Shown one piece after another: positions 39,295 to 60,032 of a stretch of DNA of 64,000 bases. This DNA is from Thermoproteota archaeon (GTDB lineage Archaea > Korarchaeota > JAOZGF01 > JAOZFZ01). The notes under the pieces are model-generated. The model was not told where the DNA came from. It searched no databases and was given only the letters and a program-made list of their open reading frames with translations. A program made the position numbers and the translations under genes. The stretch spans positions 384,001 through 448,000 of the forward strand of contig JAOZFT010000004.1 in NCBI GenBank assembly GCA_027492035.1. The letters run 5' to 3'. Position 1 is the stretch's first letter. Every line of letters begins with the position of its first letter.

Positions 39295-39532
39295 TTATTC
39301 ACCTTCGTTTTCTTCTCTTTTTTCGTAGGCTAATATTTCATCTGCCAAGTCTAAATGTGTCAAAAACATCCTTCTGCAGCAGTATCTTTTTATTCCTAAT
39401 TCATCTAAGGCTTCTTTTTTACTTTTCCCTTGCTTAAGTAATTTAAGGTAATCCTCCCAAAGATGACCTATAAGTTTTCCACAGGTGAAGCACCTTCCGC
39501 GTCATTCAACATGACTTTACGGGTATATGCAT
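39295..39532 (-). CDS. rpoN: RNA polymerase subunit N (Rpo10), 71 aa, split by a 22-nt BHB intron; join(39517..39532,39295..39494)
   Basis: Spliced product: [21 protein letters not shown]...GIKRYCCRRMFLTH... Conserved position between rps9 and rps2. Missing from the ORF track because the unspliced frame stops at codon 9. Confidence 0.93.
39495..39516 (-). other. BHB mRNA intron in rpoN
   Basis: mRNA UAC-CCGU-AA^A-GUCAU-GUUGA-AUGAC-GCGG-AA^G-GUG: 4-bp central helix, two 3-nt bulges, 5-bp inner helix. Confidence 0.9.
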
Positions 39533-39548
39533 CCCTAAACCCCCTTTT

Positions 39549-39971
39549 TTATCTTTTCGATTTCTGGAACCTCGCTCTTGCTCCTCTCCCTCCGAATTTC
39601 TTGCTTTCTTTCAATCTTGCATCTTCAACTAACATAAACCTGTCATATTCTAAGAATTTATTTTTTAAGGTTTCTCTCGTTTTTTCATCCTTAATCCATT
39701 TAAGAAGAGCTCTTGAAATAGCTACTTGAACTGCTTCAGCTTGTCCCATGTAACCTCCCCCCTTGGCTTTAGCCTTTATGTCTATATTCTTTGTAATTTC
39801 CTCCCCAGCTAATAAAAGGGGCTCCATTATTTTCCATTTCGCAATTTCAGGTTGAAATATCTCAAGTGGGATATTGTTTATTTTTACCTTCCCTTTCCCT
39901 TTTTTAATCGTAACAGAAGCTCTTGCTGTCTTTCTTTTTGCACTTGCGAAAACAAATTCTCCGTTTACCAT
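39549..39971 (-). CDS. rps9: 30S ribosomal protein S9
   Basis: KRKTARA, GGGYMGQAEA, KKFGGRGARARFQKS. Confidence 0.97.
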   Translation of the reverse strand: MVNGEFVFASAKRKTARASVTIKKGKGKVKINNIPLEIFQPEIAKWKIMEPLLLAGEEITKNIDIKAKAKGGGYMGQAEAVQVAISRALLKWIKDEKTRETLKNKFLEYDRFMLVEDARLKESKKFGGRGARARFQKSKR

Positions 39972-39974
39972 TCC

Positions 39975-40430
39975 TTAACTCATCCTCCAATCGCTCGTTA
40001 GCTCCGCTATCTCCCTTAAAGTTATCGTAGAACTTCTTACACTTAATTTTGAACTGGTTAATGAATCCACTTTCTCTTTTTTAACATTTTCAAGTTCTGC
40101 AGGTACCCCTAAAAAAACTCTTAACATTTTGTATGCCTGTCTCCCCTTCCCCTTTTTGTAAGGAAGCATTCCTCTAACTGTTCTCTTAAACAACCTATCT
40201 GGTCTTGCATAGTAAAATGGCCCTTTTCGAGGGTTAGCGAGGTTTTTTCTCCATTTCCTCTTTAAATACTCCCTTAAAACCTTTTGCCTCTTTCCACTCA
40301 CTACTATTTTTTCTGCATTAACTACAGCCACTTTTTTACCGTTTAACAACTTTTTTGCTACATATGAAGCCAATCTGCCCAGTATTGTTTGCTCTCCATC
40401 CAGTACAATGTCGAAATTCACTTTGTTCAC
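39975..40430 (-). CDS. rpl13: 50S ribosomal protein L13
   Basis: ILGRLAS, VNAEK, RTVRGMLP. Confidence 0.97.
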   Translation of the reverse strand: MNKVNFDIVLDGEQTILGRLASYVAKKLLNGKKVAVVNAEKIVVSGKRQKVLREYLKRKWRKNLANPRKGPFYYARPDRLFKRTVRGMLPYKKGKGRQAYKMLRVFLGVPAELENVKKEKVDSLTSSKLSVRSSTITLREIAELTSDWRMS

Positions 40431-40789
40431 CTTAAAATTTTAATATTTGATCCCTTAGGGTTTAATTCGGCAATTTCTGTCAGTTTTAAAGCTCTTCCTT
40501 TTGCCTCCACTATTTTCTCAACTGCCCTTTTTGAGAAGGAGTAAGCTGCTACATTCACTTCATGTTTCAGGGTTCCCCCACCAAGTACCTTACCAGGCAC
40601 TATCACATATTCTCCTTTACCAGTTAATCTATCTATTTTACTTAAGTTCACCACTATCCTCTTTCTTTTGCTCCTTGAAAGGAGTTCAGCTACTCTTCTC
40701 CAGATCTTAGCCTTTTCTTCCCTTGATTTCATTTTAAGGAATGTTATCAACTCTTTCAGTTCTTCACTGGCAGGTTCTTTCTTTACCAA
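40427..40789 (-). CDS. rpl18e: 50S ribosomal protein L18e
   Basis: IWRRVAE, VNLSKI, VPGKVLG.G, NPKGS. Confidence 0.96.
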   Translation of the reverse strand: MVKKEPASEELKELITFLKMKSREEKAKIWRRVAELLSRSKRKRIVVNLSKIDRLTGKGEYVIVPGKVLGGGTLKHEVNVAAYSFSKRAVEKIVEAKGRALKLTEIAELNPKGSNIKILR

Positions 40790-40827
40790 TTTCAGTTCCT
40801 CCTCTAAGTTTTTAGGGGGAAGAGGCT

Positions 40828-40898
40828 AGGCGAGGCTCAGTTTTCCAGGTTCTCATCATTTTTTTCAAGCTCTGCGTAGGTACTTCACAGCCTCCCCT
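40828..40898 (-). ncRNA. Box C/D sRNA (guide complementary to tRNA-Leu)
   Basis: Terminal stem AGGGGAGGCU/AGCCUCGCCU, degenerate C box GUGAAGU, D' UUGA, C' AUGAUGA, D CUGA, 12-13-nt guides. Confidence 0.72.
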
Positions 40899-40925
40899 TA
40901 CAATGAAGATTTTATAAAACCTTAC

Positions 40926-42020
40926 CTATTTTTCATTTATAAACCTATCCTTTAACTTTTTGAGAACCTGGGGTAATGTTGTGTATTCCATTTCGTGGGC
41001 GCTTAATCTGTGGGGCATAAAGGGGCCGTGTTTCCTTAAGTAGTCGCTGACAAAATTGGCCATATCTCTCGCGTTGTTAAAAGCTGGATCATCAAATAAA
41101 TCAGCCGGGCCTATTAGTAAACCATTTGAAACTTGGAAACCCAATGCAACTATTCGTGGGGGGCCGTCAAATCTAGTGCATTTGGCATCTTTTAGCCCCA
41201 CAGGCATTAAGGGACCTATATGGCTTCCTCGCATCCATCCAGCCACTAGATGGGGGAAACTGAAACCCTCCAGTATTTCCCCAATGGCTGGCAATCCATG
41301 CTGAGCCCTAACTATCGCTACTGGGTCATCTTTACCCACGTATTTCCCCGCTATCAAATTCACTTTATCTGTACTCACCGATGCAGCTACTGTTCCATCC
41401 TTCTTTGAAACCTCCTTTATAACATATTTACCTGTTGTTCCTATTAAAGCCAAAATGTCGTACATTTCCTCTGGACTGCTTAACTGAAGCATATCACCTG
41501 TGTAAACATCAGTTATTTTGAAATTGAAGCCCTCATGCATTTTTGGGTCTATAACCAAGCCTGCTGTACAGAAAGGGTCTGAAAAAATTCTGAAAAGAGG
41601 TAAATTGAAAGCTCCAGGTTCTGTTTTGTCAGCCATTAAAACTACGACAGGTTCTGATTTCCTCTCTTCAAATTCCAGCTCGGCTACACCTGGACCCATA
41701 CCTCTGACGTTACCTGAAAAGGCTTCTTTGAGAATATCTTGCCCAGCAGCATAAAGGTGCATCTCTTGAGCTTTTTGTTTACATTTATTAAATGCTTCCC
41801 AGGCTAGGCTGTGCACTTCACTGCTATTTTTTCCTTTTCTATGACTCATCACCAGCTCTAAGTCGTCTCCGCAATTAGTTACAAAAAAATCTTTTATTAT
41901 CCCCTCCTCTTTCCCCCTCTTTAAGTTCTCCTTAGCTGTGTCAAGCAGTGGCTTTGGCACTATGTGATGTCCTGCTAGTGACCCTACATCAGCCTTTATT
42001 ACCGAAATTGTAACCTTCAA
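40926..42020 (-). CDS. fbp: Fructose-1,6-bisphosphate aldolase/phosphatase (class V)
   Basis: IKADVGS, YAAGQD, GNVRGMGPG, YVGKDDP, GWMRGSH. Confidence 0.97.
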   Translation of the reverse strand: MKVTISVIKADVGSLAGHHIVPKPLLDTAKENLKRGKEEGIIKDFFVTNCGDDLELVMSHRKGKNSSEVHSLAWEAFNKCKQKAQEMHLYAAGQDILKEAFSGNVRGMGPGVAELEFEERKSEPVVVLMADKTEPGAFNLPLFRIFSDPFCTAGLVIDPKMHEGFNFKITDVYTGDMLQLSSPEEMYDILALIGTTGKYVIKEVSKKDGTVAASVSTDKVNLIAGKYVGKDDPVAIVRAQHGLPAIGEILEGFSFPHLVAGWMRGSHIGPLMPVGLKDAKCTRFDGPPRIVALGFQVSNGLLIGPADLFDDPAFNNARDMANFVSDYLRKHGPFMPHRLSAHEMEYTTLPQVLKKLKDRFINEK

Positions 42021-42076
42021 TTATTTCCCCTCGACCAAATGCTTAAAATTGTTTTCTTAAATTGGTAAAAGGGACA

Positions 42077-44593
42077 TTAGTTAAAAAAACTTTCTAAAGT
42101 TTTAGACCCTATTATTTCGTCGAAATCTAGGTTAAGGGCATCAAGTACTTGTTCAAAAGTTGTTTTTAATGTTTCAACATATTTATCAATGTCTATTTCG
42201 CTTTTCTTTGTGAGACTTAACGGTTTAACTCCTATTTTGCCTTTTGTTTTGATGAAATTTATTGTGTCTCCTGGTTCTATGTTTACTCCCTTCTTTTCAA
42301 GCATTCTTGCAGCTTTAACATGTTGAGGAGTTGTTTTAGTGTACCTGTTTAATGGCTTTGTCAAAGAAACTTTAAAGGAGAGATCCTCCAGGTTAAATGT
42401 TTTGTTTTTAAGTGCAAGATACTTTTCCTTAATTATTTTCTGTATTTCCTTCTTGGCTTCTTTAAATTCTTGTTCAGTTTTCACTTTCCCTAAAATCTCA
42501 ACCATTTCATAAAAAGCGGTCTTTATGAAGGGGGGAGTGTTCTTCTTTTTCCCTATAAGACCCTTTATATCCACTGTGCCGTCAAGATAAACCCCTATGT
42601 AATTCTTTTTCCTTTTCGATAAGGCAACATATCGATAAATCTTGTCTATATCCATATCTATGCTGAATTTCTCCTCAACCCATCTCATAAGTTCCTCTAT
42701 AACTTTTTTAGGTGGTTTTTCAAGAAAAACAGAATCTGTGTCACCATAAATTACTTTTATTCCCCTTCTTTGAGATTCCTTCATGACTTCTATGATCAAA
42801 TGTCTACCATAAGCTGTTATGCTTTCTGCCACAGGTGGACAGTAGTAGCTGAATGTTTCAGCACCTAAAACACCATAAGATGCGTTCAATATGACCTTAA
42901 GAGCTTGCTGTATGACTTTATTTTTTTCTCTTTCTTTTACAGGTAAATCCTTGGCTTTGGATTTTGGTTTGAACCACCTCACTCTTACATCCCTTAAAGA
43001 TCCCATCAAAACAGAAATTAAGCCTCTTCGCCTCGTACAAACCCAATGAGGTGTGTCAGGAACTTTGTTTCCTCTACACCCCGGATCGTTACAGTTAATT
43101 GTTTCGTAACTTAAGTTTCTACTTTTTATTAAGCTTGGATAAAGACTGGCGAAATCTAGCACTGTGACGTTGAAATGAACTCCTTCAGCCGGTGGAATAA
43201 TCACAGCCCCCTTGTACTTTTTTCCCTGAATTACAGACTTTGTTTTTGCTTCTCCCTTCTTTTCAATAATGTCCTCAGAGTTTGGAATCAATAACCCCCT
43301 TTTTCGGTGTTCGTAGTTTAAAAGGTTTCTTATCCAAGCTGAAACTCCTGTCCTTGTCACATCTTCTAAACTTAATCTAGAAATTTTACTGATCAAAATG
43401 ATTAAGTTCATAACTAGGCCGTCATTGAAAGTTGTTAACTCCATTGTCAATTCGGAATCTCTAAGACAGTATTTGGCGAGTTGCTCCAAAGTCAACTGTG
43501 AAATCTCTTCTTCTAATTCTATTTTCCCTTTAGAGAGTAAAGCTGTTGACACTTCATCAAGAGTTGCGTTTCTGTATCTTTCAGAGAAAGCGTAAACTTG
43601 GATTGACCTGTTATGAAAGAATTTATAAAGGTCTAAATGAAGCCCAGGCTCTATTTTAAACGAATCTTTTCCTTCCTTTAAAGGAATCTCCTTCCGGTTT
43701 ATTCCAAGTTTTTCAGCTCTATGAGCCAAGTAGGGTAAATCAAAGTTGTCTCCGTTAAAAGTAACCAGTAAAGGAATATTTTTTATTTCATTAAATATCT
43801 CCCTGATCATTTCTTGTTCAGAATTGAAAAAGTAAACCTTCGCCCTCTCTTTCAAACTTTCCAAATTCCCCTCTTTTACAGAAACTCTCTTCAGTAGAAA
43901 TATTTTCCGTTCTGACTTATTACTGACTAGAGTTGCAGCTATTACTGGGTAATTAGCTTCTTTTGCGTAAGGTATCCTCCCAACTTTTGGAGAGAAAACT
44001 TCTATGTCTAAAGCTGTTCTGGTGATATTAGGTATGGTAGCTGATAACAACTTAAACCAGTTAGCTGTTTCTTTATAAACTTCTGGGTCGAAAAGGAGCT
44101 CCTCCCTGAATAAGTTTTTCCATTTTTCATTTTTCCCGTTTTCTTTTTCAACCCTTTTTAAGGAGCCGCTTTCACTGATGAGATATTCCTCCCCAATTAT
44201 AAGCTTATGATCATAAATATAATTGTTCCTGTATTTTATTTTATCCTCCCATAAGTGAGCGCTTAACTTTTTTCTTTCGAAAACTTCTCTTATGCTGTTT
44301 CTCCTTCCACTTATCCATAAAGGATCTTCAACCTCTATTTTTGTAAATTTCCTTTTCTTGTTTAGTAATGTATCGAAAAGAGTTACTTCTTTAAAGCTAA
44401 GAACAGCTTGTTGTATTTCTTTATCTAACACTTTCTGTACTTCTTCTTTGGTTAAATCCGTTAAACAATAAGGTCTATGACCGGTTGAATCAGCTACTTT
44501 CAAAATTATTTCTTTTTCAGGGTTATAGAATTTCATTATTGCCTTCTTTTCTTTTCCATCATAATTTACGCCAAGTAAAAAGCCTCTTTCCAT
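42077..44593 (-). CDS. polB: Family B DNA polymerase (B1-like)
   Basis: Exonuclease DIE, FNGDNFDLPY; polymerase DFASLYPS, K...NASYG, YGDTDS. Confidence 0.95.
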   Translation of the reverse strand: MERGFLLGVNYDGKEKKAIMKFYNPEKEIILKVADSTGHRPYCLTDLTKEEVQKVLDKEIQQAVLSFKEVTLFDTLLNKKRKFTKIEVEDPLWISGRRNSIREVFERKKLSAHLWEDKIKYRNNYIYDHKLIIGEEYLISESGSLKRVEKENGKNEKWKNLFREELLFDPEVYKETANWFKLLSATIPNITRTALDIEVFSPKVGRIPYAKEANYPVIAATLVSNKSERKIFLLKRVSVKEGNLESLKERAKVYFFNSEQEMIREIFNEIKNIPLLVTFNGDNFDLPYLAHRAEKLGINRKEIPLKEGKDSFKIEPGLHLDLYKFFHNRSIQVYAFSERYRNATLDEVSTALLSKGKIELEEEISQLTLEQLAKYCLRDSELTMELTTFNDGLVMNLIILISKISRLSLEDVTRTGVSAWIRNLLNYEHRKRGLLIPNSEDIIEKKGEAKTKSVIQGKKYKGAVIIPPAEGVHFNVTVLDFASLYPSLIKSRNLSYETINCNDPGCRGNKVPDTPHWVCTRRRGLISVLMGSLRDVRVRWFKPKSKAKDLPVKEREKNKVIQQALKVILNASYGVLGAETFSYYCPPVAESITAYGRHLIIEVMKESQRRGIKVIYGDTDSVFLEKPPKKVIEELMRWVEEKFSIDMDIDKIYRYVALSKRKKNYIGVYLDGTVDIKGLIGKKKNTPPFIKTAFYEMVEILGKVKTEQEFKEAKKEIQKIIKEKYLALKNKTFNLEDLSFKVSLTKPLNRYTKTTPQHVKAARMLEKKGVNIEPGDTINFIKTKGKIGVKPLSLTKKSEIDIDKYVETLKTTFEQVLDALNLDFDEIIGSKTLESFFN

Positions 44594-44764
44594 TTATTTA
44601 CCACTATAAAGGTTTTTGATTCCCTCTTTTCTTAGAAAAAGAGGAAACTTAAAAATTTTGGTGATCTTTCTTGTCAGCCCTTCTTTCTATGATAAAAGGA
44701 AGAATTTTTTAAATCTATTTTTGTGTATGAAGAGGGTATAGAAGAAATGAAAAGCAATGAAGGG

Positions 44765-45043
44765 TTAATTTCTTATTTCAAGCCATTCTAAAGGTATATC
44801 CTGATATACTCCACTTCCTCTTATCCTTCTTCTAATGATTAAAGGCAGGACTTTCTTTTTCAATTCAAGTTTGGCGATTTCAACGGGGTCAATTAAATTA
44901 GGAGGCAGTTCAATTAAAATAGGTGCTCCTACTTCAATCTGTAAAGCTCTAGCAGAAATTATTGCTACTCTTTCATATTTAGTTAAAAAGGGAGGTCCTA
45001 TTTTCACCTTCCCGCTTAAGTTGGAAGAGTTTTTTTTAGGCAA
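44765..45043 (-). CDS. rpoK: RNA polymerase subunit K (Rpo6)
   Basis: LTKYER..ISARALQI..GAP, LPLIIRR. Confidence 0.95.
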   Translation of the reverse strand: MPKKNSSNLSGKVKIGPPFLTKYERVAIISARALQIEVGAPILIELPPNLIDPVEIAKLELKKKVLPLIIRRRIRGSGVYQDIPLEWLEIRN

Positions 45044-45105
45044 AGATGATTAACCTCAAAAAATGAGGGAAGGTTTTTGTTTTTCACCTCTCAATAACTT
45101 ATCCT

Positions 45106-46767
45106 TTAATAAGGTGGAGCTCCCCCTGGATAACTTTGAGGTAACGGCTGTGCACCTGCTCCCTTCCCTTTCTCCATTTTACCTGCAGCTATTACATCGT
45201 CTATTCTCAATATCATTTCTGCAGCTTCAGTAGCTGAAGCAATGGCTTGTTTTTTGACTCTGGTGGGTTCAATTACTCCTTCCTTTATCATATCCTTTAT
45301 TTCTCCTGTATTTACTTCAAAACCTGTAGTGAGGTTACCTTGTTTATGTGCAGCTCTTAGCTCGGCTATTTTGTCTATTTGATCAAATCCCGCATTTGTA
45401 ATTAGAACCTTAGGTATTACTTCCACTACGTCCGCAAATGCTTTTACTGCAAATTGTTCCCTTCCACCAAGAGTTTCTGCATATTCCCTTAATTTCCTTG
45501 ACACCTCTATTTCTACTGCTCCCCCACCTGGCACAACTTTTCTGTCTTCCATCACATTTCTCACAACAGCTATCGCATCATGTATGCTTCTTTCAGCTTC
45601 CTCTACTACATGTTTTGCAGCTCCTCTGATAAGTATGGTTACGGCCTTCGGGTTTTTACAGTTTTCAACGAAGACCATTTTATCCTCTCCTACCTTCCTT
45701 TCTTCAACTAGCCCTGCATAGCCTAAATCTCCTTCTGAAAGTTCTTCTATATTGGTTATTATTCTTGCACCTGTTGCTTTAGCTAATTTTCCCATATCTG
45801 ATTTCTTAACCCTTCTCACTGCTAAAATATCTGCTTTTGCAAGGAAGTGTTGGGCTACTTCATCTATCCCTTTTTGGCAAAAGACAACGTTTGCCTTTGC
45901 TTCTTTAATTTTGTCCACCATTTCTCTCAACAACTCTACTTCTTGGTCGAGAAATGCTTTCATTTGTTCAGGGTTTGAAATTCTGATTTTTGCATCTATT
46001 TCTGTTTTCTCTATCTCTAACGGGTTCTGGATTAAAGCTATCCTTGCATTCTCCACTTTTTTTGGCATATCTGAATGGACAACTTCTTTATCAATAACCA
46101 TCCCCCTTATTAACTGCGTTTCAGCTATTGACTTACCTTCTTTCTTCTCAACTTTTATATTATCTATGTCAACTTTGACTTTTCCGTTCTGTTTTGTTTT
46201 TACTATGTCTGCTGCTTGCACTATTAGTTCAGCAAGTTCTTTTCTTGATCCTGCCACATCCTTTGAAGCCAAAGCCGTTTCAGCAACTTTCTTCAGGGTC
46301 TCCACATCTCCCTCTTTAACCTCTATTGCTAAACTGTCAATTATTTCAGCTGCTTTTCTAGCTGCCTTTTTGTATCCTTCAATTATCACTGTAGGATGTA
46401 TCTCTTGGTCGACTAATTCTTCAGCTACTTTTAAGAGTTCACCTGCTAACACCACCACACTTGTAGTGCCGTCTCCTGTTTCGTCATCCTGAGCTTTAGC
46501 CACTTCAACCATCATTTTAGCTGCAGGATGTTCAACATCCATTTCTTTCAGCATAGTTGCTCCGTCACTAGTTATTACAATGTCCCCCAGTGAATCCACC
46601 AGCATTTTATCCATCCCCATTGGGCCAAGTGAGGTTTTCAAGGATTCAGCTATGGTTTTAGCCACTTCTATGTTTATTCTTAAAGCACTTCTTCCAACTT
46701 CTCTAGTCGTTCCTTCCTTAAGAATTAAAATAGGCTGACCACTTGGCGTCTGAGCTGCAATAGCCAA
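45106..46767 (-). CDS. ths: Thermosome (group II chaperonin) subunit
   Basis: [24 protein letters not shown]. Confidence 0.97.
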
Positions 46768-47036
46768 TTAAATCACCTCAGAAAATGTGAAAGAAATTAT
46801 TTCATCAAACAACAAAAGTGAAGAGTTAAATGTGTTTATGAAGATGCTTCTTCAGGGAAATTATTTTCTGGAAAGAAACACCTTAAAAATTTGTCCCACA
46901 TTTATTCATATCTTTTTTAAAAATCCAATTTAAAAGTTTCGTTTTATAATGTTTCAGAAATACATTACTGGTTTATGTTTTTAAATTATTTGCCTCGAAA
47001 GAAATTGCTTTTTTTCAAAAATAAGTATCTGTTATT

Positions 47037-47768: not shown

Positions 47769-47860
47769 TTAAAAAAGAAACATTTTCAAGTACACTTTCC
47801 CTAAAAAACTCCTTGTTCTTTAAAAAAGAATGCTTTTTTTAAAAACTAGGAGTTAGGAAA

Positions 47861-49114
47861 ATGTTATATAGAAGAGTCCCAGAAACTTTGAGAAGGATGA
47901 ACTCTTTAAAAAGCCACATTCATAAAGTAAGGGTTTTAACCGGTCTTTTTAGGGAAGCAAAACCTACTGAACTTCCCTGCCTGATTTCTCTCCTATCAAG
48001 GCAATTCTTCTTTCCTTGGGACACTAAGCGTTTTAGGCTCGGTATCTACCATCTTTCTAAGGCAGTAACTGAAATTTCAGTTGCTAACTTAGTTATGAGA
48101 GAGTTACAGGTCTCTAAGGAACTAATACATCTTTTCATTAAAGATTTCAATAAATTAAAGAAGCAAACTTCTCTAATTGGGGAACAGCCTTTGTCCATAA
48201 CTGAAGTTTGTTCTCACTTAAAAAAAATACTTGAACTAAAGGGAAAAGGTAGTTTAAGGCAGAAAAAAAGTTTCCTGCAGGCTCTTTTTTTAAGGGCTAG
48301 TAAGGAAGAAGTTGAAAATTTGGTTAAAATAATCTTTCAGCAACCCATATCTATAAAACAGGAAGAACTAATGCTCTCAGCCCTTTCAAACTTTTTCTCC
48401 ATGCCCCTCTCAACCATCAAAGAACTTTATTTCTATAATCCCCACTTCAAGAAATTAACAGAGGCCCTTATCCTCTTAAAAAACTCAGAAATGAAAGGAG
48501 TCCTTGGCATTACTCTTTTTAAACCTTTAAAACCTATGAACATGGTTACAGTTAAAGAAATAAATGAGGTTACAAAGAAAATTTCTAACCCTGCCTTCCT
48601 TAACTTCCTAAAAGGATTGGAAGTTCAAATTCATTGTTTAAAAAACAAGGAAATTAATTTCAAAATATATACGCATAACCTTGTCGATTTCTCCAACAGG
48701 TTAAAAAAAATCAAAGAAATATTACCGGCAATCAACCATAAAAACTTCATTTTAGAAGCTGAACTCTTAAGTAACGGGAAGCATCCTCTCAGAAGAAAAA
48801 ATCAACCCTCCAAAGAATTAGCTTCAAAGATAAGTAATAAATCTGTTTCCAAAATCGAAATTCAACTGTTATTGGTTGACATTCTCTTTCTTGATGGATT
48901 AAACCTTGCTAAAGAACCAGGAGATATAAGGCTTTCCACTTTACAAAGACTAAAAGTTAAAGAAGGCTATGGAATCATTAAGCCAACAGTTTATTCTCTT
49001 CAAGAGTTCAAAAAAATGGATATAGGATTTGGGGACTACTTAGTAAAGGATAAAAATGCACCATATTACTTAAGCAATAAACTCCTCATTAGAGGAAAAA
49101 GAGGAAATTGTTAA
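47861..49114 (+). CDS. Degenerate ATP-dependent DNA ligase-like protein (DNA-binding domain plus decayed adenylation domain, no OB fold)
   Basis: G.GS..QK..FL..LF, LFKPLKPM, VQIH, FILEAE, DILFLDG. Lacks the KxDG motif. Confidence 0.65.
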   Translation: MLYRRVPETLRRMNSLKSHIHKVRVLTGLFREAKPTELPCLISLLSRQFFFPWDTKRFRLGIYHLSKAVTEISVANLVMRELQVSKELIHLFIKDFNKLKKQTSLIGEQPLSITEVCSHLKKILELKGKGSLRQKKSFLQALFLRASKEEVENLVKIIFQQPISIKQEELMLSALSNFFSMPLSTIKELYFYNPHFKKLTEALILLKNSEMKGVLGITLFKPLKPMNMVTVKEINEVTKKISNPAFLNFLKGLEVQIHCLKNKEINFKIYTHNLVDFSNRLKKIKEILPAINHKNFILEAELLSNGKHPLRRKNQPSKELASKISNKSVSKIEIQLLLVDILFLDGLNLAKEPGDIRLSTLQRLKVKEGYGIIKPTVYSLQEFKKMDIGFGDYLVKDKNAPYYLSNKLLIRGKRGNC

Positions 49115-49457
49115 ACCGTATAGATTTCACTCTCCATGTGTCTTTGCGCCATGTAAAGATACAAAGGCTGTTTCATGAGGTGCATGTTGAAAAGGCTGAG
49201 GAAGTTGTTGAAAGAAAAACAAAAATCAAGGAAACGGTGAAAAACATAATTGGGAGGGTGGCATGCTATCTGTAGAATCTCCTGAAAAGGTTACGTTAAA
49301 AAATGAAAGAATCCGTGAGCAAAGAAGGGTCCACAGCCCTTTATCATATTTTAAAAGAATGAAAGTTATGTCAAAACACAATTTCTCATTACGCAAAAAA
49401 GGGTGTAATGAAGAAAGTTAAGTAATGCGTTAGACAAGCCTAATTATATAAGGAGGA

Positions 49458-49549
49458 CGCCCCGGGCGGGATTTGAACCCACGTCAATGGCTCGACAGGC
49501 CATTATGCTCTCCGTTTTCGGTTTTAAAGCCGGGCTACACCACCGGGGC
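49458..49549 (-). tRNA. tRNA-Asp(GTC) with a ~16-nt D-arm intron (~49508-49523)
   Basis: GCCCCGG/CCGGGGC-G acceptor, ATGGC-CTGTCGA-GCCAT anticodon arm, 92 nt total. Intron boundaries are approximate. Confidence 0.88.
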
Positions 49550-49714
49550 ATTTAAGTAAGTAATGTGCTGTTTTTTAAAATATTCCCTTTTACCCCCTTA
49601 ATAAATATTTCTCTTCTCTTTCTTATCATACTTTAATTTGTTTTTAGTTTTGTTTTTTAATGGGTTTAAGGAGTGAATATTATTTTTTACTTTTGTTGGT
49701 TAAAATGTTTTACT

Positions 49715-50644: not shown

Positions 50645-50806
50645 TTTTCTCCACTCTCTTTTTTAAGGAAATATTTAAAGCCTTCCACAAACACTTCAAA
50701 ACAATAGGTTTTACTATGTTTCTTTGAAAAATATTTTTGATTTAAAAGGTGAATGTATTAAAAAATCCCTGTAGAAACCTTAAAAACAGGTTTTAGGTGT
50801 CTCTCT

Positions 50807-51856: not shown

Positions 51857-52550
51857 CAGGTGGTGTTTAACTTTGGAAATCCGAATTTTATCCCATACGC
51901 CAAACCCTGAATTAATAGTTGCTTTGGCTGCGCGTCAAAGCTGGTCTTCAAAAAAAGTAGAGGATTTGAAAAAGGAGTTGACACCTGAAAAAGTTTCCAG
52001 CTTCTTGCGTAAACTCTACAAAATGCATCATCTTTCTCCCTTTGAACATGCAAACTTCACGTTTTTGGTGGAAGGAATTTCTAGGGTTACAAGCCATCAG
52101 CTTGTAAGGCATCGAATAGCCTCCTACACCCAACAAAGTCAGAGACATGTGGAGGTAACTGAGGGAAAATTTGTTGTACCTGAAACAATTAAAAACAAAT
52201 CTTCAACACATAGCCTCTACACTAAAGCAGTGAAGTCTGCAGTTTCTATTTATAAGAAACTTATAAATGAGGGGGTACCTCTTGAAGATGCAAGATACGT
52301 TCTTCCTAGTTCCGTCACAACCAGAATAATTTTCACTATGAACGCGAGAGAACTGCTTCACTTTTTCAAATTAAGAACATGTATAGCTGCTCAATGGGAA
52401 ATAAGGAAAGTAGCAGAAGAAATGCTGAAATTAGTCAAAGAAATAGCACCTAACCTCTTCTACTACGCCGGTCCACCATGTGTAGAAGGTATATGCCCAG
52501 AAAAAAAATTCTGTGAACTTTTCAAAAAATATTACAAGAAAAAGAGTTGA
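51846..52550 (+). CDS. thyX: Flavin-dependent thymidylate synthase
   Basis: HLSPFEH, QLVRHRIASYTQQSQR, EDARYVLP, AQWEIR. Confidence 0.95.
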   Translation: MKLNRWCLTLEIRILSHTPNPELIVALAARQSWSSKKVEDLKKELTPEKVSSFLRKLYKMHHLSPFEHANFTFLVEGISRVTSHQLVRHRIASYTQQSQRHVEVTEGKFVVPETIKNKSSTHSLYTKAVKSAVSIYKKLINEGVPLEDARYVLPSSVTTRIIFTMNARELLHFFKLRTCIAAQWEIRKVAEEMLKLVKEIAPNLFYYAGPPCVEGICPEKKFCELFKKYYKKKS

Positions 52551-52577
52551 AATCTCCCGAAAAAGGGAGGGTCACAT

Positions 52578-53393
52578 TTGAGGTTTGCAGTAAAAATTTT
52601 TTATGACGGAGAAAACTTTAAAGGGTTTCAAAAGCAACCTAATGTACCTACTGTAGAGGATGAAATCCTTAAAGCCCTTAAGGCATGTGGTTTAATTCGC
52701 GACGGAAAAGAAAGCATGTTCAACTATGCAGGGAGAACAGATGCTGGTGTCCACGCTTTAGGACAAGTTATTTCCTTCAACTCCATAAAGGATGAAATCG
52801 ACATTTTCAGTCTAAATGATTACTTACCCTACGAAATAATAGCTTGGGCATATATTGAAGTTGATCCTGATTTTAACGCTAGAAAACATGCCTACTTAAG
52901 ATGGTACAGGTATGTAACTCCTTATAATGGGGAAGAAATAAGCAAGATGAAGGAAGCTGCAAAACTGCTTATTGGCACCCACGACTTCTCCTATCTCTCC
53001 AAACCAGTGAAGGATCAAGTTCAAACGAGAAGAGAAATCAAAACTGCTGTTTTAAGGAAAGAGCATGAAAACATTGTTTTCGACATAACAGGCGCCAGTT
53101 TCCTTTGGAAAATGGTTAGGAAAATCTGGTCAGCCTTGCAAATGGTTGGAAGAAGAGAAATAAGTGTTGAAGACTTCAGAAAGTTACTTGACAAAGAAAA
53201 AAATATACCTTTAACACCTGCAGAGCCTGAAAACTTGGTTTTAATGGATGTTTTTTACGAAATCCCCTTCATAGTCAGTAGCTTTGCAGTTAAAGAAATA
53301 ATTTATTACCTGAAAAAGAAACAAAAGAACCCTAAAGAGAGAAGGCCTGTTTTCCAATCTATTATTGAAGACTTACAAACAAGGATTAAGTAG
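52578..53393 (+). CDS. truA: tRNA pseudouridine(38-40) synthase
   Basis: YDG..F.GFQKQ, AGRTDAGVHA, GTHDF, FLWKMVR. Confidence 0.95.
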   Translation: MRFAVKIFYDGENFKGFQKQPNVPTVEDEILKALKACGLIRDGKESMFNYAGRTDAGVHALGQVISFNSIKDEIDIFSLNDYLPYEIIAWAYIEVDPDFNARKHAYLRWYRYVTPYNGEEISKMKEAAKLLIGTHDFSYLSKPVKDQVQTRREIKTAVLRKEHENIVFDITGASFLWKMVRKIWSALQMVGRREISVEDFRKLLDKEKNIPLTPAEPENLVLMDVFYEIPFIVSSFAVKEIIYYLKKKQKNPKERRPVFQSIIEDLQTRIK

Positions 53394-53481
53394 GTAATGA
53401 AAGGCTTTTTGCAACAAAAACTTTTAAATTTTTGAAGAATGGATATAGGCTGAGAAAATTTTTCTTTCAAGGTGTTTCTAA

Positions 53482-54639
53482 TTGATAGGTAAATACGACT
53501 TAATAGTTGTGGGTGCAGGACCTGCAGGCTTAGCTGCTGCTGGAAAAGCTGCTGAAGAAGGGCTAAAAACAATTATTTTAGAGAAACATAACGGCATAAA
53601 GGCTTGGAAACCATGTGCAGAGGGAGTAAGCAAACCAACATTTAAAACAGCAGATATAGAACCGGAAGAAAAAATTATCGATAACGTTACTTCAGCAAGA
53701 GTTTACGCTCCGAATGGCAAATATATAGATATAAATGAGGAAGGGTATAACATCAATAAATCAGCTTTCCTTTTTGAAATGGCTAAAAAAGCAGCTGAAG
53801 CAGGGGCTGAATTAAAAGTAAACACTCCTGTACACAGTGTATATTTCCAAGAAGGCAAAGTTTCAGGTGTCACTACCTCTAAAGGAAAAATATACGGGGA
53901 AATAGTAATTGGAGCTGATGGAATTTATTCAGTAATAGCTAAAACAGCTAATTTCAACAGGGAAGGATACGAGTTGATACCTGTTCAACAGTATAAACTA
54001 ATTAATGCTTCTATTAAGGAACCAAACGTGGCTAGGATTTATTTAGGTAAAGAAATAGCTCCCTTAGGTTACGCTTGGATTTTCCCAAAAAGCAGTAAAG
54101 TGGCTAATGTTGGGTTAGGTGTCCGAGGCAAGCCCGTTACATTCTATATGAAAAAGCTCTTGAAAGACCATCGGGATGAATTTAAACACTCTCAAATAGT
54201 TGAAATTGCAGGTGGAGCTGTGCCAATAAGCGGTTTAACTAAAGAAGTAGTGAAGGATCGCATTATTCTTGTAGGAGATGCTTCTGGTACAGTTATACCT
54301 TTCACTGGAGCCGGTATTCATTCCTCAATAGCTGCAGGTATTACAGCAGCTGAAGTTTCAGCTGAAGCCATAAGTGAAGAGAACCCTTCCAAAGACAATT
54401 TAAAAAAGTTTATTGAACGTTACAACAAATACTGGGGAACTAGAATAAAGAAAAGCTATAGGGTAATGAAACTTTTCGAAAAATTATCTGACAACGACTT
54501 AAATGAATTAGCTGAGGTCTTAACTCAGCAAGATGTCATAGACTTAGCAAACGGGTTTAACCCTAGAAGAGTAGCTAAGAAATTGCTTAAAAAACCTATA
54601 TTTGGTGCTAAGTTGGCATCCAAACTTTTCTCTGTTTAA
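53482..54639 (+). CDS. Geranylgeranyl reductase family (digeranylgeranylglycerophospholipid reductase-like)
   Basis: VGAGPAG, KPCAEG, GADG, PLGYAWIFPK, VGDA. Confidence 0.9.
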   Translation: MIGKYDLIVVGAGPAGLAAAGKAAEEGLKTIILEKHNGIKAWKPCAEGVSKPTFKTADIEPEEKIIDNVTSARVYAPNGKYIDINEEGYNINKSAFLFEMAKKAAEAGAELKVNTPVHSVYFQEGKVSGVTTSKGKIYGEIVIGADGIYSVIAKTANFNREGYELIPVQQYKLINASIKEPNVARIYLGKEIAPLGYAWIFPKSSKVANVGLGVRGKPVTFYMKKLLKDHRDEFKHSQIVEIAGGAVPISGLTKEVVKDRIILVGDASGTVIPFTGAGIHSSIAAGITAAEVSAEAISEENPSKDNLKKFIERYNKYWGTRIKKSYRVMKLFEKLSDNDLNELAEVLTQQDVIDLANGFNPRRVAKKLLKKPIFGAKLASKLFSV

Positions 54640-54651
54640 AGAGGTGTTTCT

Positions 54652-55764
54652 ATGGAGAAACTGAATAAGTTACTTTTGTTTGAATTACATAAAAACCTTA
54701 ACGCTAAATTTTTTGAGTTTGCAGGTTGGAAGATGCCTTCCCAATATTATAAACCCAGTCAAGAACACCTAGCTGTTAGAAAAAGTGTTGGAATCTTTGA
54801 TGTCTCCCACATGGGAAGATTCAGGTTCAAAGGAGGCAAGGTGAAGGAGTTCATTCAATATTTAACAACCAATGATGCAAGGCTTTTAGAAGAGAGAGCA
54901 ATGTATACCTTAATTTGTCGTGAAAATGGCGGAATAATTGACGACGCAATCTTTTTTAAGGACAGCAAAGGTTTTGGGGTTGTTGTTAATGCTTCAAACA
55001 GAGAAAAGGACTATAATTGGTTCCTGAAAAACGCTAAAGATTTCAGTGTAGAAGTGAAGGACTTAACTTTTGATTCCGTAATGCTTGCTGTTCAAGGACC
55101 TAAAGCGGAGGCAACCTTGCAAAAATTAACAGATTTTGAACTTGTTAAAATGAAAAGATTCGGACAGGCTGAGATTAAACTAGTGAACTTACCAGTTAAT
55201 ATAACGCGAACTGGCTATACAGGCGAAGACGGTTTCGAAATAATATTTTGGAAAGCTTCAAAAAACATTAACCAAGCTTTTAACCTTTTTGAAGAGATAC
55301 TGAACGCAGGGAAGGAATACGAAATTAAACCATGCGGTTTAATAGCTAGAGATACTTTGAGACTTGAAGCGGGAATGGTTCTTTACGATCACGATATTAA
55401 CGAATCCATAACTCCTTTAGAAGCTAACTTAGGCTTTGTGGTTAAATTCAACTTTGGTTCTTTCATAGGGAAAGAGAAACTAATGGAGCAAAGTAAAAAG
55501 GGGGTTGAAAAAATAAGGGTAGGTTTTGAAATGATTGAAAGAGGATTTCCAAGGCCTGGAGACAAAATATATAGCAAAGAAAGGGTTGAAATAGGGGCGG
55601 TGACAAGTTCAGGCAAACCACCCACTTGTAAGAATCCCATAGGGATGGGTTATGTAAAACTGCGCTACAGCGAACCCGGCGAAAAAATATTTATTGAAAC
55701 TAAGACAGGCGTTAAGAAAGCGAAAATAACTAAGCTCCCTTTCTGTGCACTTAAAAGAATTTAA
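54652..55764 (+). CDS. gcvT: Glycine cleavage system T protein
   Basis: FAGWKMP, FDVSHMG, TRTGYTGEDGFE, RDTLRLEAG. Confidence 0.96.
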   Translation: MEKLNKLLLFELHKNLNAKFFEFAGWKMPSQYYKPSQEHLAVRKSVGIFDVSHMGRFRFKGGKVKEFIQYLTTNDARLLEERAMYTLICRENGGIIDDAIFFKDSKGFGVVVNASNREKDYNWFLKNAKDFSVEVKDLTFDSVMLAVQGPKAEATLQKLTDFELVKMKRFGQAEIKLVNLPVNITRTGYTGEDGFEIIFWKASKNINQAFNLFEEILNAGKEYEIKPCGLIARDTLRLEAGMVLYDHDINESITPLEANLGFVVKFNFGSFIGKEKLMEQSKKGVEKIRVGFEMIERGFPRPGDKIYSKERVEIGAVTSSGKPPTCKNPIGMGYVKLRYSEPGEKIFIETKTGVKKAKITKLPFCALKRI

Positions 55765-55986
55765 AATAACTTAGAAAAAAGAAATTCAGAATTTTTTCCT
55801 TGAATTGAAAAATTCCTGTTTTAAATTTTTCATTAAACAAAGTTCAATTATTTCTCGATATCTACTCTTCTTCTTCATTTCTTCTTTGAAAAAATGTTCA
55901 TTATAAAGGTTGTCTATTTTATTTTTTTATTTTTTTAGCGCTAAAATTAAATAATTTAAAAGAAAGGCTACAATTTGGTGCTCTAA

Positions 55987-57333
55987 GTGAAAATAAGGTT
56001 TCCGAAAATAGTTGTTACACCGCCAGGGCCACGTGCCAGAGAGCTTTTAAAAGCAGATAGGAAATATATCTCCCCGAGTTATGTAAGATGGTTCCCTTTA
56101 GTGGTGGAAACAGGTAAAGGAGCCATTATTAAAGATGTAGATGGAAATGAATACATAGACTTTAATGCAGGAATAGCTGTCTTAGCCTTAGGTCTATCCA
56201 ATGAAGAAATCAATGAAGTAGTTTGTAAACAGGTGAAGAAGTTAATCCATTACTCTAACACTGACTTTTATTATGAACCATCAATAAGATTAGCTGAAAA
56301 ATTGACTAAAATAACCCCCGGCTCCGCAGAAAAAAAGGTTTATTTCGGAAACAGTGGAACAGAAGCCGTTGAAGCTGCAATTAAGTTAGCTCGTTGGCAT
56401 ACTACTAAAAGCCGTATAATAGCTTTCATAGGTGCTTTTCACGGAAGGACTCTGGGATCCCTAAGTTTAACTGCCAGTAAGACTGTTCAAAGGGCCAGGT
56501 TCAGCCCTTTTATACCAAACGTAACACATGTCCCTTACCCTTACTGTTACAGGTGTCCCTTCAACTTAGAACCTGAAAGTTGCAACTACTACTGTGTCGA
56601 TTTTATTGAGGAATGGGTTTTAGAAAAGTATGTACCACCCGAGGAAGTAGCAGCTATAATTTTTGAACCGATCCAAGGTGAAGGAGGATATATAGTTCCG
56701 CCAATCGGTTACTTTAGGAAATTGAAGAAACTTGCAGACAAGTACGGAATATTACTTATCGACGATGAAGTTCAAGCTGGAATGGGTAGGACAGGTAGAT
56801 GGTGGGCTATTGAACATTACGATGTAATTCCTGACATTATTTGCAGCGCCAAAGCCTTAGCTAATGGCTTACCTTTAGGTGCAGCAATAGCTAAAGCTGA
56901 AATTATGGATTGGCCTGGAGGTTCTCATGCAAGTACATTTGGGGGTAACCCGGTGGCGTGCGCGGCGGGATTAAAGGTTTTAGAGATAATGGAGAAAGAA
57001 AATTTGCTTTCACATGTAAAGGAAATGGGGAATTATTTATTGGCAAGATTCAAAGAAATGAAGGAGAACTATGAAATAATCGGAGATGTGCGTGGTAAAG
57101 GGTTAATGATAGGGGTTGAGTTAGTTAGAGACAGGGAAAAAAAGACCTATGCAAAAAAGGAAGCTGAGGAAATAATAACTGAAAGTTGGAAAAGAGGACT
57201 GGCAATCATCACTGCAGGTGTGTCAACTTTAAGAATTTCACCTCCCTTGATAATATCTAAAGAACTTGTTGATACAGGACTTGAAATTTTGGAGGGCCAA
57301 ATAAAGGAGGTAAACAAAAAAATCTTCCCTTAA
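55987..57333 (+). CDS. Class III PLP aminotransferase (4-aminobutyrate/acetylornithine-like)
   Basis: SGTEA, AFHGRT, EPIQGEGG, DEVQAGMGRTG, SAKALANG. Confidence 0.93.
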   Translation: MKIRFPKIVVTPPGPRARELLKADRKYISPSYVRWFPLVVETGKGAIIKDVDGNEYIDFNAGIAVLALGLSNEEINEVVCKQVKKLIHYSNTDFYYEPSIRLAEKLTKITPGSAEKKVYFGNSGTEAVEAAIKLARWHTTKSRIIAFIGAFHGRTLGSLSLTASKTVQRARFSPFIPNVTHVPYPYCYRCPFNLEPESCNYYCVDFIEEWVLEKYVPPEEVAAIIFEPIQGEGGYIVPPIGYFRKLKKLADKYGILLIDDEVQAGMGRTGRWWAIEHYDVIPDIICSAKALANGLPLGAAIAKAEIMDWPGGSHASTFGGNPVACAAGLKVLEIMEKENLLSHVKEMGNYLLARFKEMKENYEIIGDVRGKGLMIGVELVRDREKKTYAKKEAEEIITESWKRGLAIITAGVSTLRISPPLIISKELVDTGLEILEGQIKEVNKKIFP

Positions 57334-57404
57334 CTTTTTTTGAGCTCCTTTACTTTTAAAGGGTTTTCTTTTCCTATAGCCACCAGAAAATTTAATTGTG
57401 AGGT

Positions 57405-58758
57405 CTACTTTCTAATTTTTATGTATTGGTAGGCTTCAGCAGCTGTCTCGAAACAGTAATGTACCTCTTGGAAGCTTTTTTTGAATTCTTTTACATCATT
57501 TAATACTTTCTCAGGTTTCTCTTTGTCTATTATTACTCTTTTCATAAAGTCTGCAATTTCCTCCATGTCTTGTTCCTTCATCCCTAGCCTTGTAACTTCA
57601 CTTGTACCTAGTCTTATTCCGCCTGGATGCTCGTAATGTCTCCCTTCCCGAATATCCCAGGGTAAAAGGTTTCTATTAACTATTATGTTTGCCTTTTCCA
57701 GTTCTTTTTCAATTGCTGCACCATCTCCATACTCCGAAATATCTACGAGTAATGTATGACTCTCAGTGAACCCTTTGTCAGCTGCTACCACCTTGAAGCC
57801 TCTCTCATAAAGTGATTCCCCAAGTTTTTTTGCGTTCCTAATTATTTGTTTTGCGTATTCTTTTCCAAACTTTAGGTGCTCAGTTAAAGCTATAGATAAA
57901 GCTGCTACGCAGTTTAAGTGGTGGTTACTCACTAGCCCAGGGAAAGTAGCTCTTTTAATTTCCTCGAAACACTCCTTTTTCCCTACAACCATCCCATGTT
58001 GAGGACCTGGTAAAGTCTTGTGGGTTGACATTGAAATCACGGCTGCTCCTTCCCGCAGAGGGTCCTGAAACAAACCTGCCCCTATTAAGCCCGCTACATG
58101 AGCTGCATCATAAGCCATAACTGAACCTACTTCTTGAGCTGTTTCGACGAACTCTTTCACTGGATGTGGAAACAAGAATACACTCCCTCCAAACATTAAC
58201 AGTTTAGGTTTCTCCCTCTTTATCTTTTTTATGGATTTATCTACGTCAATGTTCATTTCTTCTTCATTGAATTCGAAGTATTCCACGTTTAATCCTTTCA
58301 CAGCACCTGCTGTGCCTCCTATGAATGAACCAGTTTTTGATTTTAAAGGACCAGCTGAAATATGTCCCCCCTTACTTATAGGTAAGGCGAAAATTTTGTC
58401 TCCTGGTTCGGTGAAGGCCGTATAGACAACTAAATTGGCCACAACACCAGAAATAGGTCTTACGTCAGCAAATTCTGACCGGAAAAGTTCTTTAGCTAAC
58501 TCAATAGTTATTTCTTCCACTTCATCTATATATTTGCAGCCTGCATAAACTCTCTCTCCGGGCCAACCCTGCAGAAGCCCTTAGTTTTCATCTAAGGACT
58601 TACTCTGCGTATCTGTGCCCGAAGTCAGAAACTAATGCCTCTCTGACAGCTGGACTCGTCACATTTTCACTGGCAATTAAAGGGATGGCATCTATAAACC
58701 ATTCATGATGTTTCTTCAACAAATCGAAAATTCTTCTGTAACTTTCTTCAGGTTCCAA
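57405..58758 (-). CDS. glyA: Serine hydroxymethyltransferase, 439 aa, split by a 34-nt BHB intron; join(58603..58758,57405..58568)
   Basis: Exon 1 (TTG start after a GGTGA SD) reads ...PLIASEN..SDFGHRYAE. Exon 2 reads GWPGERVYAGCKYIDEVE...YDAAH...STHKT...GIRLGT. Confidence 0.93.
58569..58602 (-). other. BHB mRNA intron in glyA
   Basis: mRNA AC-GCAG-AG^U-AAGUCCUUAG-AUGAAAA-CUAAGGGCUU-CUGC-AG^G-GU, plus a distal UUCGGGC/GCCCGGA exon stem. Confidence 0.92.
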
Positions 58759-58895
58759 ATTCCATCACCATCCTTTAAAAATCCTTCAAACTTAAATGAT
58801 TCCCTTCAAAACCTTTATATTTTTATGTTTTCTAATAAGGATTGAGAAATTACCTAAATTCCTTCAATTTTTTTCTCTGAAAACCTATCTAAGCT

Positions 58896-60032
58896 TTGGA
58901 AAATATGTCAGAGGTTAAAAAAATGGCGGAAGCCGAAGTTACTTTAAGCGGTGAACTAAAAGGGAGAAAGGTATTCTTAGAAGGTCCAAAAAAGTCCATA
59001 CAAGAGTACATAAATAAAGGCTTTGGTTATTGGGAGGCTGACTCTGAAACTTTAGAGCTTCACCTCATAGAAGCCCTTTATCTCCTAGAAAAAAATAAGA
59101 TAAATCTTTATAAAGGGGAAAAACAGTTGGAAAGGAGCGATTTACTTAATGAATTGAAGGAGAACGAAAATGATTTCTTAAGATACCTTGTTTACAAAGA
59201 TTTAAGGGATAGAGGGAGGATAGTAAAGATTGGACCCTTAGATTTCCTTAGGCTCTTTGTTGGCCAGTATAAACCTGAGGATTCTGTTTCAAGATATTTT
59301 ATTTTCGCTTTATCTGAAGAAAAGCCTATGCTGTTTCAAACACTTACGAAGTTAATAAACGAAAGCTCGAAACTTAGGAAAGAACTACTGTTAGCCATAG
59401 TCAACGATGAAGGAATAATCTCTTACTATGTTACACGGAAAATAGATATTTTATCAATTGATGTTCCACATTTAGATTTTGAAAATGTTGAAGCTTACCT
59501 GTACGGTGACCGTTTAGTCATTTGGAACATAGAAAAAGCCAGAGAACTGTATGAGAAAGGTTTTTTCGGGCATCCGATAGGGATAAGGAAACCTAAATCC
59601 TTTGAGTTTGAACAACCATCTCTCCTGTCTCTCTACGAAGCCCATTACTTGCTGAAAAAGAAAAAAATAAAAGTCATCGACCCAAAAAACGGTAAAGAAC
59701 TGGATCTGGAATCTTTCGTAGAGAAAGCTAAAAGTTTAAGGGAAAGGTTTGACATACGTTGTCAAGTATATGACTACTGGCGTGACAAGGGCTATGTGGT
59801 GAAAAGTGGTTCACTGTACGGTGTAGACTTTATAATCTATTTAAGAGGCCCTGGAATGGATGAACATTCAAAGTACATGAACCATGTTTATTCAGAAAGT
59901 TCAAGTTTCATACCCTTAGAAATTATTAGGGCGGGAAGAGTAGCTACTACTGTAAGGAAAAAACTAATCTTATCTTTATTAAACAAAAAGGGGGAGATAA
60001 ACTTTTACAAGTTTTCTTGGCATAAACCTTAA
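58896..60032 (+). CDS. endA: tRNA-splicing endonuclease EndA, two-unit (structural plus catalytic) fusion
   Basis: Two EndA repeats (LIEALYL..YLVYKDLRDRG; LYEAHYL..VY..WRDKGYVVKSG..YGVDF). Catalytic Y/H/K present only in the C-terminal unit. Confidence 0.93.
   Translation: MENMSEVKKMAEAEVTLSGELKGRKVFLEGPKKSIQEYINKGFGYWEADSETLELHLIEALYLLEKNKINLYKGEKQLERSDLLNELKENENDFLRYLVYKDLRDRGRIVKIGPLDFLRLFVGQYKPEDSVSRYFIFALSEEKPMLFQTLTKLINESSKLRKELLLAIVNDEGIISYYVTRKIDILSIDVPHLDFENVEAYLYGDRLVIWNIEKARELYEKGFFGHPIGIRKPKSFEFEQPSLLSLYEAHYLLKKKKIKVIDPKNGKELDLESFVEKAKSLRERFDIRCQVYDYWRDKGYVVKSGSLYGVDFIIYLRGPGMDEHSKYMNHVYSESSSFIPLEIIRAGRVATTVRKKLILSLLNKKGEINFYKFSWHKP

Follow-up and report, generated by a model that had tools for sequence, protein, structure and literature searches.

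A 64,000-nt stretch of a korarchaeal genome carries two genes, rpoN (Rpb10) and glyA (serine hydroxymethyltransferase, SHMT), whose coding sequences are interrupted by short inserts of 22 and 34 nt, and a third gene of the same genome, cbf5, is interrupted by 23 nt. The stretch, hereafter the window, spans positions 384,001 to 448,000 of contig JAOZFT010000004.1 (assembly GCA_027492035.1) and has its own coordinates; the genome under study (G000) comprises 1.87 Mb. The window is archaeal DNA of ~37% GC, rich in translation and transcription genes (Pfam). We consider it likely that all three genes contain a short archaeal bulge-helix-bulge (BHB) intron that would be spliced out by EndA and RtcB, and that such splicing concerns a small number of mRNAs rather than forming a genome-wide layer. 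A preliminary description of the window had recognised two mRNA introns, unrelated in sequence but alike in architecture and placed near the 5' end in highly conserved motifs, their length of 3n+1 with stop codons, an intron in every tRNA gene of the window, and the presence of endA and archease. All of these observations hold, and its view that two introns were a minimum was correct, as cbf5 is the third case; its extrapolation to the whole genome fared less well and is treated below.

Anatomy of the rpoN and glyA inserts

On the minus strand of the window, a 254-nt gap separates the genes L18e-L13-S9, in this order, from S2, and a gap at this place is where rpoN is usually found. From its first residue on, the second exon of rpoN matches Pfam RNA_pol_N (E = 4.6e-27) over profile positions 6-58 of 58, and its frame lacks a start codon; the absent positions 1-5 are provided by the first exon. 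Similarly, the open reading frame (ORF) of glyA begins at position 67 of the 399 positions of the SHMT profile, so that the N-terminus is absent from the frame. When the inserts are taken out, the profile coordinates are contiguous across both junctions (RNA_pol_N 1-5 | 6-58; SHMT 6-50 | 51-399), and therefore their removal restores each protein with no residue lost or gained. The resulting junction peptides equal those of relatives, namely ...PVR|CFTCG (28 loci) and ...RYAE|GW (29 loci). Both insert lengths are 3n+1; the rpoN insert contains an in-frame TGA, and the glyA insert opens with an in-frame TAA.

The expected topology, as in pre-tRNAs, is 5'-h-H-bulge-h'...h'-H-bulge-h-3', where H is the central helix, h' the inner stem and h the outer helix, and the cut falls after the second bulge base. 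The same cut, between the second and third base of the bulge, was described for the cbf5 intron (Yokobori 2009, PMC2738675). Both inserts fit the layout h-B3-H4-B3-h' at their exact boundaries, glyA with a relaxed 3' side. For rpoN, H is CCGU/GCGG (4 bp), the bulges are AA|A and AA|G (3 nt each), h' is GUCAU/AUGAC (5 bp) with the loop GUUGA, and h comprises 3 bp; H, h' and the 5' bulge all appear in the minimum free energy (MFE) fold. The glyA insert has GCAG/CUGC (4 bp) as H and the bulges AG|U and AG|G, and its h' extends over 10 bp, including one G-U pair, with a 7-nt loop (AUGAAAA).

To assess these structures, each insert was shuffled 200,000 times with the exons held fixed. The probability of obtaining a minimal BHB at exactly these boundaries was P = 0.0014 for rpoN and P = 0.0006 for glyA; a structure as good as the observed one had P = 0.00014 for rpoN and occurred in 0/200,000 shuffles for glyA.

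A probable third intron, in cbf5

Frameshift-aware tblastn identified a 23-nt BHB intron in cbf5 at G000:C9:310022-310044, outside the window. Its MFE fold (UAGGA-A-CCCU-AGA-CCCCU-loop-AGGGG-AGGG-AAA-UCCUA) is a textbook motif, with an H of 4 bp, bulges of 3 nt each, an h' of 5 bp and an h of 5-6 bp behind a 1-nt bulge. The spliced sequence reads GGA ACC CTA G|AT CCT (GTLD|P), which places the border between letters 1 and 2 of the catalytic Asp codon. The crenarchaeal cbf5 intron occupies the same codon position, and spliced cbf5 cDNAs have been sequenced (Yokobori 2009, PMC2738675); in the table of that study, the sole korarchaeal genome was scored 0 for this intron. Among 30 cbf5 loci read here, 13 (G000 included) carry an intron at the Asp codon site and 17 are intact. 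The 13 introns have unrelated inner stems that nevertheless all pair, and the central helix shows compensatory variants (CCCU/GGGG, CCUU/GAGG and CUCU/GGAG). Their lengths range from 15 to 33 nt and cover all three phases, so that the 3n+1 length pointed out for the first two inserts is not a rule.

Distribution among relatives

A match to rpoN was found in 40/41 genomes searched, and 30 loci were read. The insert is present at the same site in G000 and in G001, the one further genome in this family. In G001 the central helix is kept and the inner stem is GCCGU/ACGGC (GUCAU/AUGAC in G000), with two pairs compensatorily changed. The other 28 loci, among them that of the same-order genome G002, lack the insert and read unbroken ...P(V/I)R-CFTCG; in one of them (L005) the start codon is ambiguous. 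Among 80 species-representative loci from public genomes, the insert was detected in one only (L252), which has the upstream sequence and coordinates of G001. Separately, the rpoN gene of an Archaeoglobaceae metagenome-assembled genome (L285) apparently begins MSGIPFDENSSDFPIRC, upstream of the rpoN match, where part of the N-terminus is repeated around the palindrome GGAATT...AATTCC; this repeat may be an in-frame insert.

The glyA insert has a different distribution. A match was found in 38/41 genomes, and all 29 relatives' loci (29/29) are unbroken at the site (...RYAE|GW(P/V)GERVYAG); the insert is therefore species-specific among those searched. The glyA gene of G001 is intron-less with flanks near-identical to those of G000 at the insertion site, and the second exon is 78% identical to it (residues 1-386 of 387), the exons being without decay. 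The glyA intron thus appears to be very young. A metagenome search for closer glyA relatives gave a best match of 68% identity and no independent copy of the G000 intron.

Inserts close to this site were found in two distant archaea. Of 80 metagenome glyA loci, 78 had a hit and 74 enough upstream sequence; 73 of these are unbroken (41 judged by pattern, 32 by eye), and the sole exception is a 32-nt insert on a contig of an uncultured archaeon (L218:338-369). The 80 loci from public genomes yielded 77 usable ones, of which 76 are unbroken and one, on the complete chromosome of a member of the Atabeyarchaeia (Asgard), carries a 38-nt insert (L343:464-501). Both inserts lie 16 nt downstream of the G000 site, where they split the motif GWPGE|R within its Glu codon (GGA G|AG CG.). 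Their BHB folds share the H CUGG/CCAG and have bulges of 3 nt; the h' of L343 contains one U-U mismatch. The glyA introns of L218, L343 and G000 are mutually unrelated in sequence.

Splicing enzymes, tRNA introns and proposed route

The coordinates of the exons and introns in the window and of the genes for the processing enzymes and tRNAs are compiled in Table 1. The endA gene is the only PF01974 gene in the genome and has two PF01974 matches. Its N-terminal half is structural and closest to beta subunits. The C-terminal half is the catalytic one and belongs to the crenarchaeal alpha type, its best solved relatives being crenarchaeal catalytic alpha subunits; the catalytic Tyr/His/Lys triad aligns. 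The stretch IGIRKPKS (region IGIRKPKSFEFEQP) aligns without gaps with the Crenarchaea-specific loop of A. pernix, with K232 at the position of K44 and K234 at that of R46, and the alignment to the alpha4 enzyme begins only past this loop region. This loop and its lysine confer a broad substrate range (PMC3241643), and a fused "irregular alpha'2" EndA with an L1/CSL loop has been described for Korarchaea (PMC5829648). Judged from its sequence, the EndA studied here belongs to the fused alpha'2-like type, with two units in one polypeptide and the loop with the conserved Lys. The host would accordingly possess an endonuclease able to cut relaxed and non-tRNA BHB motifs, in addition to an RNA ligase.

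Rfam detects three tRNA genes in the window, and 3/3 carry inserts, one of them at a non-canonical position. Genome-wide, introns were predicted in 24/36 tRNA genes (36 by Rfam, introns by ARAGORN). The T-loop insert and the many tRNA introns imply that EndA is already used on non-canonical sites. The tRNA genes are unevenly placed, with 35/36 on contig C9 (36% of the assembly) and one on the other 41 contigs; the skew could stem from uneven binning or from tRNA genes so heavily interrupted that they stayed hidden. The endA gene is divergent from glyA, and the intron-bearing 5' end of glyA (TTG at 58758) lies ~140 nt from the endA start (58896; interval 58521-58895), a closeness that is probably a coincidence.

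Table 1. Exons, introns, processing enzymes and tRNA genes (window coordinates unless stated otherwise).
Feature	Position	Strand	Basis and remarks
rpoN (Rpb10) exon 1	39517..39532	-	ATG CAT ATA CCC GTA A = MHIPV + first base of Arg codon
rpoN BHB intron, 22 nt	39495..39516	-	Fold, shuffle test, conservation in G001
rpoN exon 2	39295..39494	-	GG TGC TTC ACC TGT...; stop TAA 39297-39295
glyA (SHMT) exon 1	58603..58758	-	TTG start, 52 codons, ends ...HRYAE (CAC AGA TAC GCA GAG); Pfam SHMT 6-50
glyA BHB intron, 34 nt	58569..58602	-	Fold, shuffle test, absence in relatives
glyA exon 2	57405..58568	-	GWPGERVYAG... to stop codon (begins GGT TGG CCC GGA); Pfam SHMT E = 2.9e-67, 51-399 from residue 1
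endA, fused two-unit, 378 aa (379-codon frame)	58896..60032	+	Pfam tRNA_int_endo twice, tRNA_int_endo_N twice
Archease (RtcB ligase cofactor)	24311..24733	-	Pfam Archease E = 4.8e-46
RtcB	G000:C9:453481-454788 (5.5 kb beyond window)		E = 5.5e-174
tRNA, 17-nt insert in T-loop region (non-canonical position)	35964..36054	-	Rfam RF00005 60.8 bits
tRNA, 48-nt insert in anticodon loop	36119..36237	-	RF00005 56.4 bits; ARAGORN intron call
tRNA, 24-nt insert in anticodon loop	63817..63911	-	RF00005 56.4 bits; ARAGORN intron call

In the route that we propose, folding of the pre-mRNA would bring the last bases of exon 1 into pairing with the intron's 3' end, creating the 4-bp central helix. The fused two-unit EndA with its broad-specificity loop would then cut after the second base of each 3-nt bulge, RtcB, aided by archease, would ligate the exons, and the joined mRNA would encode the normal conserved protein.

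Genome-wide search for further introns

The preliminary description held that this lineage splices mRNAs routinely, that more split housekeeping genes probably exist in the genome and that splicing could form a post-transcriptional control layer; taken in full, this claim would mean many further hidden cases. It had proposed frameshift-aware alignment combined with a BHB scan, expecting BHB motifs to be enriched at frameshift sites. As reference we used a complete but distant relative (G005, ~60% identity in glyA), of which 4260 ORFs of at least 60 aa were translated and compared by tblastn with all 1.87 Mb of G000. Among 85 pairs of split matches, only two showed a BHB whose length exactly equals the extra DNA, namely glyA (34 nt) and cbf5 (23 nt). 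Of 3650 tblastn matches in coding frame, 34 had no available start codon, and a BHB fitting the homologue was found in rpoN, glyA and cbf5 only. The proposed combination recovered glyA and cbf5; ~8 other frame breaks are 1-2-nt shifts without BHB, and the motif shows no genome-wide excess over a mirror-topology control. Further copies of the three introns in G000 were not found beyond chance 11-14-mers. No homing endonuclease gene is present near the introns, as judged from the Pfam hits of adjacent ORFs.

In-frame introns, which the preliminary description suspected to have gone unseen, were sought by comparison with G005 proteins, which yielded 2586 insertions of 4 aa or more to test. The score distributions for the true topology and a mirror-topology control were alike, and the best candidate (36 nt, G000:C38) was indistinguishable from chance. 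A homology-free scan (L 12-80, coding potential on both sides, exon 2 without start codon) returned 176 true-topology and 171 mirror candidates, and 36 of each when the first exon was required to have at least 15 codons. Apart from glyA and cbf5, the candidates with homologues are adjacent complete genes; the 13 without homologue were, by eye, adjacent genes or short spurious ORFs. The plain genome-wide BHB count (131,434 true, 130,585 mirror) is uninformative because the motif is too short for a genome of 37% GC. Requiring coding potential (score > 0.3) left 2183 versus 1990, no usable excess, and neither open-frame filters nor folding energy produced one.

Several split matches proved to have other causes. 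They derive from paired ABC ATPase genes, from a gene fission (G000:C9:106460-106577) that comes with a promoter-like and ribosome-binding sequence of its own, and from spurious ORFs in the rRNA operon (G000:C9:318-322 kb). Homologue-supported genes with one or several 1-2-nt shifts and no BHB were located at C15:1470-1960, C20:1747-2160, C21:126350-127099, C38:142606-142837, C5:20646-20941 and C9:138064-138557; these are pseudogenes or assembly errors. At G000:C22:7180-7300, a gene for a translation-type GTPase (...TIDTTQTFF | YTIIDAPGH) changes frame within an A9 run without BHB, which could reflect an assembly error, slippage or a broken gene. Two conserved genes (G000:C9:146660-146700 and G000:C9:263200-263240) align from residues 2-5 with no upstream ATG, GTG or TTG; both have a CTG one or two codons upstream of the alignment start, preceded in one of them by GGAGG.

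The occurrence of three mRNA introns in a single genome, two within one 64-kb window, the recent gain of the glyA intron and an EndA with a broad-specificity loop would all suit routine splicing, and our searches miss short exons and have low power for genes without a G005 homologue. Yet these searches added cbf5 alone, true and mirror topologies were nearly equally frequent, the leftover candidates proved to be complete genes lying side by side, no excess of in-frame inserts emerged, and nothing in the evidence bears on regulation. We therefore regard routine splicing as unlikely. Sensitivity was limited by the use of a single distant reference and by the difficulty of detecting very short exons, and where G005 offered no homologue the judgement relied solely on the homology-free scan and visual inspection; a few further cases beyond the three may therefore exist. 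Within reach of these searches, splicing looks like the affair of a handful of genes and not like a genome-wide layer.

Weighing the splicing interpretation

A number of points weigh against the interpretation of the three inserts as introns removed by EndA and RtcB. We infer the actual cutting and joining of the rpoN, glyA and cbf5 mRNAs from DNA. The outer helix of glyA has 2 bp, which makes its 3' side relaxed (HBh' type), and this intron is known from one metagenome-assembled genome alone. The fold z-scores are modest (rpoN -1.9, glyA -2.4, cbf5 -1.5); it is the register of the BHB at the boundaries, rather than the z-score, that carries the weight. BHB motifs are no commoner in the genome than their mirror-topology control. 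Moreover, the ~8 small frame breaks mean that assembly errors or decaying genes are present, so that a broken gene is by itself no proof of splicing. What can be read directly from the DNA is the anatomy of the sequences, the exact restoration of the frames, conservation with compensatory changes, and genes encoding the required enzymes.

The restriction of the glyA insert to G000 and the other small frame breaks of the assembly, such as the A9 run, could also indicate that the inserts stay in the mRNA and that glyA, possibly also rpoN, are pseudogenes or artefacts of a metagenome-assembled genome. However, both genes are central and single-copy, and unspliced copies would deprive the cell of both proteins. 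The only register that repairs the frame is also the one in which each insert folds into a BHB, the rpoN insert is kept in a second genome with compensatory changes, the exons are undecayed, and comparable glyA inserts occur in two further assemblies, including a complete chromosome. We consider this explanation very unlikely. It is scarcely conceivable that ribosomes bypass the inserts during translation by hopping of the phage T4 gene 60 type, where the skipped stretch lies between a take-off codon and a landing codon that match: the glyA stop codon directly after the last codon of exon 1, followed by a hairpin, superficially resembles a bypass signal, but the codons do not match (GAG versus CAG before GGU in glyA; GUA versus GGA before AGG in rpoN), rpoN and cbf5 are split inside a codon, which hopping could not mend, and the structures match the EndA geometry exactly.

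Relation to known splicing systems

The crenarchaeal cbf5 pre-mRNA intron was reportedly described by Watanabe in 2002 and by Yoshinari in 2006. Our full-text searches, which covered the main text of openly accessible articles, returned as EndA-spliced mRNAs only cbf5, in some Crenarchaeota, and the 5' untranslated region (UTR) of HVO_1309; within the same scope, no paper on introns in rpoN or glyA was found. A review from 2023 considers it likely that more archaeal mRNA splicing substrates exist (PMC10485636).

The closest parallel is the cbf5 intron of Desulfurococcales and Sulfolobales (PMC2738675), which is likewise a short BHB or relaxed BHB within coding sequence, is handled by a broad-specificity EndA and is lineage-specific with gain and loss. 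In contrast to that system, the hosts rpoN and glyA are new, three introns occur in one genome, and EndA is a fused single polypeptide instead of a heterotetramer; the organism itself stands outside these two orders. The rpoN and glyA introns are new members of this cbf5-type class. The BHB intron of HVO_1309 in Haloferax volcanii (PMC7714728; PMC10485636) is also a non-cbf5 mRNA substrate of the splicing endonuclease; unlike the introns described here, it is located in the untranslated leader, where it breaks no frame, and is processed by a euryarchaeal enzyme of narrow specificity.

Archaeal tRNA splicing uses the same enzyme and the same motif, but here the substrates are mRNAs, and the exon side of the central helix also encodes protein, which constrains its sequence at that level. 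The splicing of HAC1/XBP1 in eukaryotes consists of a cut by IRE1 and RtcB-type ligation and is stress-regulated. It shares with the present case a protein-only cutting and joining of mRNA at paired stem-loops, a change of frame and an RtcB-family ligase (for the role of RtcB in XBP1 splicing see PMC8718801), whereas its nuclease is IRE1 and not EndA, and stress regulation is a feature of that system.

Possible origin of the introns and implications

Tentatively, archaeal mRNAs may gain BHB introns de novo and repeatedly, with gains targeted to certain sites, although we hold this to be a possibility rather than the probable case. The RYAE-GWPGER stretch of glyA has been hit independently at least two times, in this lineage and 16 nt away in L343 and L218, and for cbf5 the codon hit in Crenarchaeota is also the one hit in this phylum. 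This recurrence in glyA of distant archaea and in cbf5 suggests preferred sites. If gain were indeed targeted, there would have to be an insertion route that reads RNA or DNA sequence, and a candidate would be the EndA/RtcB reaction run in reverse and then copied back into DNA. BHB introns in protein genes would in that event be a general, overlooked class, and the species-specific glyA intron would be among its youngest examples, the sister genome being intron-less at 78% protein identity. The glyA genes of G000 and G001 constitute a clean before-and-after pair for intron gain.

With three introns in a single genome, and with two essential genes added as new hosts, the known range of EndA mRNA substrates would become wider. 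For annotation, gene callers would miss or truncate rpoN and would call glyA as a 371-aa fragment.

Other features of the window

A 417-aa ORF at 47861-49114 (+) shows a weak match to the N and adenylation domains of DNA ligase, which ends at profile position 146 of 204; no long ORF occurs in the 600 nt after it (49115-49714). Within this interval, ARAGORN calls a tRNA at 49455-49550 (-) that Rfam does not. Most archaea split RNA polymerase subunit A into A' and A''; the window encodes it at 28478-32287 (-) as one unsplit gene of 1269 aa with Rpb1 domains 1-5.

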